Assembly (NCBI GenBank): GCA_003661775.1
Contig: QMWT01000001.1
Span: 1,199 to 65,198 of the forward strand
Origin: Thermoprotei archaeon
Lineage (GTDB): Archaea; Thermoproteota; Thermoprotei_A; Sulfolobales; Ignisphaeraceae
DNA length: 64,000 bases
Reading direction: 5' to 3'
A program made the position numbers and the translations under genes. Positions 4,572 through 49,952 of this stretch are shown piece by piece; within the stretch, counting starts at the first letter, position 1; each line of letters starts with the position of its first letter. The notes beneath the pieces are model-generated. The model saw only the letters and a program-made list of their open reading frames with translations. It was not told the DNA's origin and ran no database searches.

Positions 4572-4630
4572 TACCATCAGTAATCCGATAACACATCATC
4601 TGGTCAGCCAGCGGCGATTCATCATAACCA
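4572..4630 (-). ncRNA. C/D box sRNA (2'-O-methylation guide)
   Basis: Minus strand: AUGAUGA (4624-4618), 11 nt, CUGA (4606-4603), 4 nt, AUGAUGU (4598-4592), 12 nt, CUGA (4579-4576). This is the canonical archaeal box order and spacing. Confidence 0.75.
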
Positions 4631-8349: not shown

Positions 8350-8427
8350 GGGCCCGTAGCTCAGCCAGGACAGAGCGCCGGCCTCCTAAGCCGGTGGTCG
8401 GGGGTTCAAATCCCCCCGGGCCCGCCA
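8350..8427 (+). tRNA. tRNA-Arg (anticodon CCU), CCA encoded
   Basis: Hand-folded cloverleaf: acceptor GGGCCCG/CGGGCCC, D stem GCUC/GAGC, anticodon stem CCGGC/GCCGG with loop CUCCUAA, T arm GGGGG-UUCAAAU-CCCCC. Confidence 0.95.
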
Positions 8428-23843: not shown

Positions 23844-23919
23844 GCCGCCGTAGCTCAGCGGGGAGAGCGCCCGGCTGAAGACCGGGAGGTCGGGGGTTCG
23901 AATCCCCCCGGCGGCACCA
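23844..23919 (+). tRNA. tRNA-Phe (anticodon GAA), CCA encoded
   Basis: Acceptor GCCGCCG/CGGCGGC; anticodon stem CCCGG/CCGGG with loop CUGAAGA; T arm GGGGG-UUCGAAU-CCCCC. Confidence 0.95.
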
Positions 23920-24020: not shown

Positions 24021-24800
24021 TCACAAGCTCCTTCGTCGGAACGCATTCAGTATTTCTGCGAATACCTCTTCTTTACATCCACGCTCATCCTTACACTCTT
24101 TATACCTTCTTGCAAGTCTTCTTAGCTCCAGAACATCCTCGTCTTCAAGGTCAAGAAGTGTTCTCACGGGTACTCCAGCTACGCTGCGGCCGAGGATAAA
24201 ACCTAGGACTCTTGTCACGTTACTTGCACACGGATTTATCCTTGCAGACTCTAAGTCTACTACCACAGGCTTAGAAGGATCCCCTTCCCTGTAGATTACT
24301 TGGGAAAGTGGCAATGAGATCTCGGTAATCTCTACAGCAGCGAGACCTATCTTATGAACACAGCCAAGTAGCGATAGCAGCGCTTGTTTAACGACGCTTC
24401 TGTCTCTAGCCAGTAAGAGCTCCTTAAGCGTGGGTCCTTCCACGAGCTCTCTGATAACGAAAAGGTCATTACTTATGTAAACTCTTGGCACACAACCAGT
24501 TCTTTCACACACTTTGAGAAGATTTGCTTCGTGTACCATACTAGGCCTCTTAGAGTCAAACCTTCTTATTTTGGCCGCGACGATGCCGAGCTCCTCATGA
24601 AGTACTGCCACCACGATAGCTGCATGACCTTTTCCTAGAATCCTAATGCCTCTGCCCTCCATTTTGCCTAAACTCACAACTCCCCGAACGCCATACTTCC
24701 TCAGCCTTTCTAGCAACAAGTTGCAGTAGTTAGGGTACCACTGAGGGTAGCATAGCACATGCCTAGCTTCCTCTAGCGGAATAGGCGATAAGCCGTACAT
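24021..24800 (-). CDS. protein-kinase-like fold protein (small archaeal predicted Ser/Thr kinase family)
   Basis: Gly-rich loop LGKGHAAIV plus lysine AAKIRR; no canonical HRD or DFG motif. Confidence 0.45.
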   Translation of the reverse strand: MYGLSPIPLEEARHVLCYPQWYPNYCNLLLERLRKYGVRGVVSLGKMEGRGIRILGKGHAAIVVAVLHEELGIVAAKIRRFDSKRPSMVHEANLLKVCERTGCVPRVYISNDLFVIRELVEGPTLKELLLARDRSVVKQALLSLLGCVHKIGLAAVEITEISLPLSQVIYREGDPSKPVVVDLESARINPCASNVTRVLGFILGRSVAGVPVRTLLDLEDEDVLELRRLARRYKECKDERGCKEEVFAEILNAFRRRSL

Positions 24801-24802
24801 GA

Positions 24803-24858
24803 CCGCTCAGCGTAGCTCAGCCACATCACTTTATCAGAGCCTATACCCTCATCACAGC
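24803..24858 (-). ncRNA. C/D box sRNA with a tRNA D-arm guide
   Basis: Minus strand: GUGAUGA (24855-24849), 11 nt, CUGA (24837-24834), 4 nt, GUGAUGU (24829-24823), 12 nt, CUGA (24810-24807). The D guide GGCUGAGCUACG is a perfect antisense of tRNA positions 6-17 as seen at 8355..8366 and 49881..49892. Confidence 0.8.
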
Positions 24859-25265
24859 GCTGGTCTTCGGGGAGTTTTAATCAGCGTGAGGCTACTTCTG
24901 TCAGCATAGCTAACAGTATAGTACCTAGGTTTAAGTACTTTGACTAGATGTTCAAAAGCCCTCCACGGGTCTTTCTGTGCTTCACTAATATATACATCAA
25001 CCGTTGCGTAACGGTACTCTATCCATGTGTGTACCGCTATATGGCTTCCTACCAGAATCGCTATGACTGATACCCCGCCTTTCTTACCGCCGAAAGTCCA
25101 GCTCTTTATCTCTGCAACCCTCATACCTACAAGATCCGCAGCTTCCAATACAGCTTTCCTGAGCCTGCCTTCATCACAAGCTATTGCCTCATCTACGTCG
25201 TATAAATTTCCAAATACGTGCCTTCCTCCTATGGCTGAGTTCTTACGTCGATCTCCTCTAGACAA
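24852..25265 (-). CDS. pyruvoyl-dependent decarboxylase of the AdoMetDC (SpeH) family
   Basis: Core LVGSHIAVHTWIEYRYATVDVY aligns with the SpeH self-cleavage region (..ESH..HTWPE..). Confidence 0.8.
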   Translation of the reverse strand: MSRGDRRKNSAIGGRHVFGNLYDVDEAIACDEGRLRKAVLEAADLVGMRVAEIKSWTFGGKKGGVSVIAILVGSHIAVHTWIEYRYATVDVYISEAQKDPWRAFEHLVKVLKPRYYTVSYADRSSLTLIKTPRRPAL

Positions 25266-25309
25266 GGCGTCTACCGTTCTTGGATAGCTAGTGAGAGTCT
25301 ATAAAGCGT

Positions 25310-27045: not shown

Positions 27046-27108
27046 GAGATCAGCGTAGAATGCGTTCATCACTGTCTCCTCAGACCGTGGTCGTCTCATC
27101 AACTCCAC
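27046..27108 (-). ncRNA. C/D box sRNA
   Basis: Minus strand: UUGAUGA (27102-27096), 12 nt, CUGA (27083-27080), 7 nt, GUGAUGA (27072-27066), 12 nt, CUGA (27053-27050). A terminal stem of about 6 bp is possible. Confidence 0.8.
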
Positions 27109-35577: not shown

Positions 35578-35624
35578 GGAGAGAATGGTGGGCCCGCGGG
35601 GATTTGAACCCCGGACCACGGGGA

Positions 35625-35639
35625 CTTTCGCCTGTAGGT
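35625..35639 (-). other. tRNA intron 2 (15 nt, canonical 37/38 position)
   Basis: BHB motif: the outer helix is the anticodon stem, the central helix is UUCG/CGAA, the bulges are GG|A and AG|U, and there is an inner CC/GG helix with a UACA loop. Confidence 0.75.
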
Positions 35640-35644
35640 CCCGA

Positions 35645-35667
35645 GTCGGGCACCGAGTACTCGGTGT
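35645..35667 (-). other. tRNA intron 1 (23 nt, between positions 32 and 33)
   Basis: BHB motif: a 4-bp helix CGGG/CCCG flanked by the 3-nt bulges GU|A and AC|U, with an inner helix CACCG/CGGUG. Confidence 0.7.
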
Positions 35668-35729
35668 ACCCCGCATCCTACCAGGCTAGACGACGGGCCC
35701 AGCCATGCACACTTACTGTTCTGAGCTGC

Positions 35730-38244: not shown

Positions 38245-38302
38245 AGCGTCAGCCCGCTGAAATCACATCACCTCTCAGATTCCAGCGCGCTCATCAACCA
38301 AC
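38245..38302 (-). ncRNA. C/D box sRNA
   Basis: Minus strand: UUGAUGA (38297-38291), 12 nt, CUGA (38278-38275), 3 nt, GUGAUGU (38271-38265), 12 nt, CUGA (38252-38249). It fills the 58-nt convergent gap exactly. Confidence 0.8.
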
Positions 38303-47719: not shown

Positions 47720-47780
47720 TCGTTCAGTGGGTAACCGCTTCATCATCATTTCAAGTCCCCGAAAAATTCATCATCTCGAT
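47720..47780 (-). ncRNA. C/D box sRNA (degenerate D')
   Basis: Minus strand: AUGAUGA (47774-47768), 12 nt, CUUG, 5 nt, AUGAUGA (47746-47740), 12 nt, CUGA (47727-47724). Confidence 0.65.
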
Positions 47781-49875: not shown

Positions 49876-49952
49876 GGGCCCGTAGCTCAGCCCGGCAGAG
49901 CGCCCGGCTCATAACCGGGTGGTCGGGGGTTCAAATCCCCCCGGGCCCACCA
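49876..49952 (+). tRNA. tRNA with anticodon CAU (elongator Met, or Ile2 if C34 is agmatinylated), CCA encoded
   Basis: Acceptor GGGCCCG/CGGGCCC (not initiator-like); anticodon stem CCCGG/CCGGG with loop CUCAUAA. Confidence 0.9.

Follow-up and report, generated by a model that had tools for sequence, protein, structure and literature searches.

A predicted box C/D sRNA with a guide antisense to tRNA D-arms, located between an AdoMetDC-family gene and the next ORF in an uncultured Thermoproteota lineage

What occupies the short gap behind an AdoMetDC-family gene in this archaeon, and does the stretch within it that is antisense to the D-arm of tRNAs direct a modification of these tRNAs? We analyzed this locus in a 64,000-nt stretch of contig QMWT01000001.1 (hereafter the window). 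The lineage of the window organism is uncultured and has been seen in metagenome contigs only: the identical AdoMetDC protein was found in one ENA metagenome contig only, the best AdoMetDC identity among GTDB representative genomes was 65%, and the nearest genomes were Ignisphaera-like MAGs with AdoMetDC identities of 59–67%. A preliminary description had proposed that the gap encodes a box C/D sRNA guiding the 2'-O-methylation of tRNA G10. Our analysis favors this reading with a probability of about 75%: the element is probably a canonical archaeal box C/D sRNA gene, encoding a 2'-O-methylation guide, with tRNA G10 as the predicted site of its D guide.

Architecture and genomic setting of the element

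Direct reading of the minus strand gave the order gcgcu-GUGAUGA-GGGUAUAGGCU-CUGA-UAAA-GUGAUGU-GGCUGAGCUACG-CUGA-gcgguc-AUG. The layout that had been described, with four boxes (C, D', C', D), guides of 11 and 12 nt and a 4-nt loop, was thus confirmed. The element and its surroundings comprise the following features:

24804..24859, minus strand: predicted mature box C/D sRNA of about 56 nt (ends inferred)
24859–24857 with 24806–24804, minus strand: terminal stem of 3 bp, CGC with GCG, recognized by eye; could close the K-turn
24849..24855, minus strand: C box GUGAUGA (sequence and conservation)
24838..24848, minus strand: D' guide GGGUAUAGGCU, 11 nt (sequence and conservation)
24834..24837, minus strand: D' box CUGA (sequence; invariant among homologues)
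24830..24833, minus strand: loop UAAA from D' to C', K-loop (sequence; varies among relatives)
24823..24829, minus strand: C' box GUGAUGU (sequence; invariant among homologues)
24811..24822, minus strand: D guide GGCUGAGCUACG, 12 nt, antisense to tRNA nt 6–17 (sequence and conservation)
24807..24810, minus strand: D box CUGA (sequence; invariant among homologues)
24852..25265, minus strand: upstream gene of the S-adenosylmethionine decarboxylase (AdoMetDC) family, 137 aa, the probable host transcript (Pfam PF02675, 3.7e-29; TIGR03330)
24021..24800, minus strand: downstream ORF of 259 aa (ORF259), with its ATG 6 nt past the D box
25300..25305, minus strand: TTTATA, about 35 nt before the start codon of the AdoMetDC gene, proposed from sequence only as a candidate archaeal TATA box

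The element spans 24807–24855 from box to box. At the sequence level, it shows all that is expected of an archaeal box C/D sRNA: an RUGAUGA motif stands close to the 5' end and CUGA close to the 3' end, a short loop (3–4 nt in homologues) links D' and C' boxes in the interior, and the two spacers fall within the range of 10–12 nt (11 and 12 nt, of equal length in all homologues). The minimum-free-energy fold around the element was unremarkable (z = -1.7).

According to the ORF coordinates, the gap between the two genes is 51 nt long, the UGA of the C box at 24854–24852 is also the stop codon of the AdoMetDC-family ORF, and ORF259 starts at 24800, 6 nt past the D box, all as had been described. 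Transcription together with the upstream gene, as implied by the excision from a polycistronic transcript suggested in the preliminary description, is plausible: the C box has no well-placed TATA in front of it, and the AdoMetDC gene is preceded by TTTATA (25305–25300), a candidate promoter of the AdoMetDC–sRNA transcript. A promoter of the sRNA itself at the A/T-rich stretch GATTAAAA (24882–24875) was rejected by eye; it is unlikely because transcription directed by this stretch, the sole A/T-rich one before the C box, would begin within that box. Promoterless sRNA genes lying within 25 nt of protein genes or overlapping them are common (PMC6009581; PMC7994747). No family match was found for ORF259 in Pfam or NCBIfam.

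The box pattern was compared with 300 dinucleotide-preserving shuffles of the window. The strict pattern C-guide-D'-loop-C'-guide-D was found twice in the window and in none of the 300 shuffles, while the relaxed C/D'/C'/D pattern was found five times, each time on the minus strand, against 0.007 matches expected from the shuffles. This excess indicates that the window organism clearly uses C/D sRNAs; shuffled windows yield on average about 1.8 lone C...D pairs. The element is one of the two best-formed C/D candidates in the window. Four further box C/D candidates were found, all on the minus strand (4577–4625, 27050–27102, 38249–38297, and 47724–47774). The first of them is equally well formed, the second lies 39 nt upstream of a DUF1152 gene within the gene cluster around the element, and the D' guide of the last is complementary at 9/9 positions to the site UCCCCGAAA in E. 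coli 23S (nt 813).

At gathering thresholds, Rfam matched only the three tRNAs in the window and no C/D family at the element. At E values up to 10, full-length sub-threshold alignments to sR2, sR14, sR17, and sR1 were obtained at 24805–24859; they agreed at the boxes only, and the best of them, sR2, reached 21.4 bits, with the gathering score set at 42. Since the C/D models of Rfam are guide-specific, a match at the gathering score is not expected, and its absence is no argument against the C/D class.

Predicted tRNA targets and conservation of the guides

The reverse complement of the D guide, CGUAGCUCAGCC, was matched to the tRNA genes of the window, and the pairing reported earlier (12/12 with tRNA-Arg and tRNA-CAU, 11/12 with tRNA-Phe) was reproduced. 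The predicted targets are:

8355..8366, plus strand: tRNA-Arg(CCU), nt 6–17, 12/12 pairs, G10 = 8359
49881..49892, plus strand: tRNA-CAU, nt 6–17, 12/12 pairs, G10 = 49885
23849..23859, plus strand: tRNA-Phe(GAA), nt 6–16, 11/12 pairs, G10 = 23853

The mismatch with tRNA-Phe is at nt 17, beyond the 10-nt core. Counted upstream from box D, the guide reads G1, C2, A3, U4, C5, and C5 stands opposite G10, which agrees with the position assigned to the N+5 nucleotide in the preliminary description. All three duplexes contain at least 9–10 contiguous Watson–Crick pairs spanning N+5 (12, 12, and 11, respectively), with a C–G pair at N+5 itself. A random 12-mer would match one of the three tRNAs with a probability of 1e-5, and some place in the window, both strands counted, with a probability of 0.0075.

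The D-arm sequence GUAGCUCAGC is carried by three of the four tRNAs in the window. The fourth tRNA gene, containing an intron, was located at about 35586–35700 on the minus strand (GGGCCCGUCGUCUAGCCUGGUAGGAU...CCCCGCGGGCCCACCA); it was missed by default ARAGORN and by Rfam at the gathering score, and intron-mode ARAGORN gives it an implausible anticodon. Its D-arm, GUCGUCUAGC, is not complementary to the D guide, and this tRNA is not a target; thus, the D guide would select the large class of GUAGCUCAGC tRNAs and not all tRNAs.

Six distinct relatives have a C/D sRNA directly behind the AdoMetDC gene: L002, L004 (standing also for L025 and L035, in which the sRNA and its flanks are identical), L005 (standing likewise for L027), L016, L019, and L043. 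The AdoMetDC identity with the window protein was 59–67% in the first five of them (66% in L016), while L043 aligns over only 23 residues, with 87% identity. In the alignment of these six relatives with the window (alignment A1, seven homologues), the mean pairwise identity was 0.92–1.0 in the boxes (0.92 in the C box, where only the first base varies, G or A), 0.91 in the D guide, and 0.86 in the D' guide; the values of 0.27 in the 5' flank, 0.22 in the 3' flank, and 0.31 in the D'–C' loop are essentially random. Non-conservation of the boxes and guide in related genomes had been named in advance as evidence against the sRNA; the outcome favors it, the boxes and guide cores being kept in six related genomes where the flanks are unalignable. 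Among the seven homologues, the D guide varies at positions 1 (G/U) and 12 (G/A) only, and its invariant positions 2–11 are exactly the 10 nt that a C/D RNP can pair: for the archaeal RNP, a maximum of 10 nt of guide–substrate pairing with a spacer of about 12 nt was reported (PMC7229835). The sRNA was absent from the AdoMetDC site in L001, L017, L018, and more distant relatives, where the synteny of a PD-(D/E)XK gene with the AdoMetDC gene is retained; its synteny is therefore limited to a sub-clade.

Gene ends around the element differ among these loci. The window AdoMetDC protein ends with ..IKTPRRPAL (24852–24875), a few residues longer than in L004 (..IRT) and L043 (..VKSP), and its ORF runs on to the UGA of the C box. 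In L043, the closest relative of the window locus, the ORF259 homologue (54% identical) apparently begins at an AUG within the C' box (GUGAUGU; positions 100–130) and reads through the D guide and D box, so that the sRNA and the gene start overlap there and are 6 nt apart in the window.

Two more conserved C/D sRNAs were observed near the AdoMetDC gene of relatives. One, with the guides GGCGUCCUAG[A/G] and ..UUCCGGCA, lies about 40–100 nt after the first sRNA (L002 6514–6568, L004 6465–6514, L005 6491–6540, L016 1345–1395, and L019 4527–4578); its closeness suggests a small sRNA cluster in Ignisphaera-like relatives, and no copy of its guide was found in the window. The other, with the guides UCACGGCUGU.. 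and.AACCCGUGUU., was found at L001 2055–2104 (minus strand), L002 5151–5200, L017 1890–1938, L018 1887–1935, and L019 3150–3200. In L002 and L019 it precedes the AdoMetDC gene by about 1.2 kb, in the others it is 2–4 kb away, and it occurs also in genomes without the tRNA-guide sRNA.

The D' guide is likewise under selection in the window/Ignisphaera-like lineage. In the relatives it reads [U/A]GGUAAAGGC[A/G/U] and is conserved at positions 2–10. At 24843 (position 6 from box D', beside the N+5 nucleotide), the window has U, in contrast to A in all six relatives, reflecting either decay of the guide or co-variation with its target. In a search for its target with up to two mismatches allowed, 23 matches were found in the window against 17.6 expected, which corresponds to chance. 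The scattered matches among all fetched loci fell only in loci without the sRNA and were also taken as chance; none of the fetched loci contained rRNA genes. Nothing convincing was identified in the tRNAs of the window and their flanks, and only weak matches were found in E. coli 16S, 23S, and 5S. A scan of the 16S/23S alignments of seven archaea (Dennis et al. 2015) with exact, ungapped 7-mers of the target gave one site only, in 23S near E. coli 2071 (AGCUUUACC), which was rejected because of two mismatches adjoining box D'. The tRNA 3' acceptor strand with ACCA (..GCCUUUACCA) was considered as a target and not adopted.

The tRNA guide (GCUGAGCUACG) was also present in RNA-seq-verified sRNAs of three crenarchaea, catalogued by Dennis et al. 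2015 (PMC4644070, Additional file 1), where we took the last table column as reads:

Pyrobaculum calidifontis sR34: ...GTGAAGA-GGCTGAGCTACG-CTGA, D slot, 12/12 identical to the window; last column 103
Thermoproteus tenax sR139: GTGATGA-CGCTGAGCTACG-CCGA..., D' slot; last column 181,792
Ignicoccus hospitalis sR431: ...GTGAAGA-GGCTGAGCTACG-CGCGA, irregular D box; last column 3,100

The guide was found nowhere else in Additional file 1, including the lists of S. acidocaldarius, M. kandleri, N. equitans, and M. maripaludis, and tRNA targets were not compiled in that work (PMC4644070). The element is therefore less new than the preliminary description implied, the same guide being already in published sRNA catalogues of three crenarchaea. 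In P. calidifontis and T. tenax, the guide has the same spacing from its box as in the window, so the N+5 nucleotide again faces G10; since this spacing is kept despite the different slots (D and D', respectively), the methylated nucleotide itself is apparently selected.

Predicted methylation of G10 and alternative readings

From the established workings of archaeal C/D sRNPs, we infer the expression of the sRNA in the window organism, its assembly into an RNP and the methylation of G10. Most likely, the sRNA would be made as the 3'-terminal part of the AdoMetDC mRNA. With L7Ae bound to the C/D K-turn and C'/D' K-loop, and Nop5 and fibrillarin joining afterwards, the RNA of about 56 nt would be protected while its flanks are trimmed. 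Positions 2–11 of the D guide would pair with G7–C16 of every tRNA bearing a GUAGCUCAGC D-arm, the substrate presumably being unfolded or nascent tRNA at high temperature, and this pairing would set fibrillarin on the ribose of G10, with 2'-O-methylation as the predicted outcome for GUAGCUCAGC tRNAs. G10 is a D-stem position usually base-methylated by archaeal Trm11. An m2,2G10 could form no pair with the guide C, so the ribose would need to be methylated before the base.

The alternative that survives best accepts a genuine C/D sRNA and denies that its pairing with tRNA leads to methylation of G10. The RNA could act as a folding chaperone of pre-tRNA, a role discussed for C/D guides in the case of rRNA (PMC6009581; PMC7994747); methylation could be blocked in vivo by the folded D-arm or by a base-modified G10; or the guide could in reality serve a different RNA containing this sequence. 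In line with this, Gm10 is practically missing from archaeal tRNA maps: m2G or m2,2G was mapped at position 10 in S. acidocaldarius and P. furiosus, with one tentative ribose-methylated G10 derivative only, in P. furiosus tRNA-Glu, and several C/D-guided tRNA sites of P. furiosus, predicted in snoRNAdb, were not detected by mass spectrometry (PMC7668247). We found in the literature searched no report of Gm10 in crenarchaeal tRNA and no mention of m2Gm10 or m2,2Gm10; m2Gm and m2,2Gm have been detected in the bulk tRNA of hyperthermophilic archaea. However, the mapped species may lack the guide: its absence from the S. acidocaldarius sRNA list is a counterweight to the missing Gm10 in the tRNA map of this organism. 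Moreover, the distance between guide and box is constant in the window, its six relatives, sR34 (D) and sR139 (D'), as would follow if the methylated nucleotide is what counts; pairing as such would not require it. The pair at N+5 is, besides, Watson–Crick C–G. We regard a role of the pairing other than G10 methylation as unlikely.

A cis-acting feature of the mRNA is improbable. In such a case, a K-turn bound by L7Ae would fix the 3' terminus of the AdoMetDC message or regulate how ORF259 is translated, and the guides would be incidental. L7Ae binds K-turns in mRNAs and was proposed as an archaeal translation regulator (PMC5539422), and both the 6-nt distance from the D box to the ATG and the apparent start of the downstream ORF within the C' box of L043 would suit such control. 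Yet ORF259 has no homologue at this place in L002, L004, L005, L016, and L019, where another sRNA comes next, and the guides are conserved there base for base. For a K-turn element, 10 conserved nt antisense to tRNA would be superfluous, and the same guide occurs in unrelated genomic contexts of three other genera. Finally, a functionless chance array of box-like motifs or an antisense relic of a tRNA fragment in a short spacer is highly improbable and already effectively refuted: UGAUGA and CUGA are indeed short motifs, and lone C...D pairs arise readily in shuffled sequence, but the full four-box layout did not occur in any shuffle, the boxes and guide cores are conserved where the flanking DNA is unalignable, and the resemblance to tRNA covers only 12 nt, with no further tRNA-like sequence around it.

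Returning to the methylation guide, a broader reading may be offered tentatively, at somewhat less than even odds: the GCUGAGCUAC guide, one of few shared across Thermoproteota lineages (Pyrobaculum, Thermoproteus, Ignicoccus, Ignisphaera-like lineages, and the window organism), would install a widespread, still unmapped Gm10 on GUAGCUCAGC tRNAs. Together with Trm11, this could yield the doubly modified nucleosides of the m2Gm type present in bulk tRNA of hyperthermophiles. If G10 is truly ribose-methylated, a guide would be assigned to a modification of the tRNA core for which nothing was found in the literature searched on archaeal tRNA modification. The prediction is directly testable in cultured Thermoproteales (T. 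tenax, P. calidifontis). Otherwise, the annotation is routine; C/D sRNAs, guides to tRNAs, and sRNA genes overlapping gene ends are thoroughly documented. With this locus, an uncultured Thermoproteota lineage gains one well-supported C/D sRNA, and an antisense-tRNA guide is seen to be kept across several lineages, while the partner guide and genomic context change freely.

Comparison with known guide RNAs

Among the closest counterparts is sR34 of P. calidifontis, seen by RNA-seq. Its D guide GGCUGAGCUACG with the following CUGA is identical to that of the window RNA (12/12) and stands in the same register, and both RNAs are compact, with 47–49 nt from box to box. Unlike the window RNA, sR34 has the C' box GUGAAGA and a degenerate D' box. 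The first 5 nt of its D' guide (GGGUAGUAGA..) agree with the window guide GGGUAUAGGCU, whereas the register to box D' differs (by eye). Gene sR34 adjoins sR40, while the window RNA sits between the AdoMetDC gene and ORF259; as the genomic context of sRNAs is fluid, this difference is weak evidence against orthology. Orthology is nevertheless uncertain because both the partner guide and the context differ. The sR34 family is reported from all six Pyrobaculum species studied (Lui et al. 2018).

In T. tenax sR139, apparently highly expressed if its 181,792 are reads, the antisense-tRNA guide CGCUGAGCUACG has the same spacing from its box as in the window RNA, with G10 at N+5; however, it occupies the D' slot (box CCGA), and the partner guide GCGGAUAAGG is unrelated. 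I. hospitalis sR431 shares the identical 12-nt D guide GGCUGAGCUACG, and neither of its guides has a predicted rRNA target. It differs from the window RNA in the C box GAUGACGA and in an unrelated D' guide, and its register and methylated position are ambiguous because of the irregular D box CGCGA.

In Pyrobaculum, one-third of sRNA families are predicted to target tRNAs; these sRNAs mostly combine one tRNA guide with one orphan guide, and some guides match many tRNAs (PMC6009581). The layout of the window RNA, a tRNA guide together with a guide without identifiable target, is thus the usual one there. The same holds for P. aerophilum sR64, a guide to a sequence shared by many tRNAs (G51, sixteen tRNA families) whose partner guide has no identifiable target (PMC6009581), except that its target lies in the T-stem (G51) and that of the window RNA in the D-arm (G10). 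C/D-guided ribose methylation of an archaeal tRNA was shown experimentally for the intron of Haloferax volcanii pre-tRNA-Trp (Cm34, Um39; PMC7994747). In contrast to the window RNA, this guide resides inside the intron of its own target, serves one tRNA only and acts at anticodon-arm sites.

Human SNORD97 (D97) is a eukaryotic snoRNA with long guides of another sequence, and no homology with it is claimed. Its predicted tRNA-target hotspots, however, are at positions 10, 22, and 34, and Gm10 of Arg-UCU is listed as supported by PARIS2 capture and/or dRMS validation (PMC10576143), which provides, by analogy, a precedent for C/D-guided Gm10.
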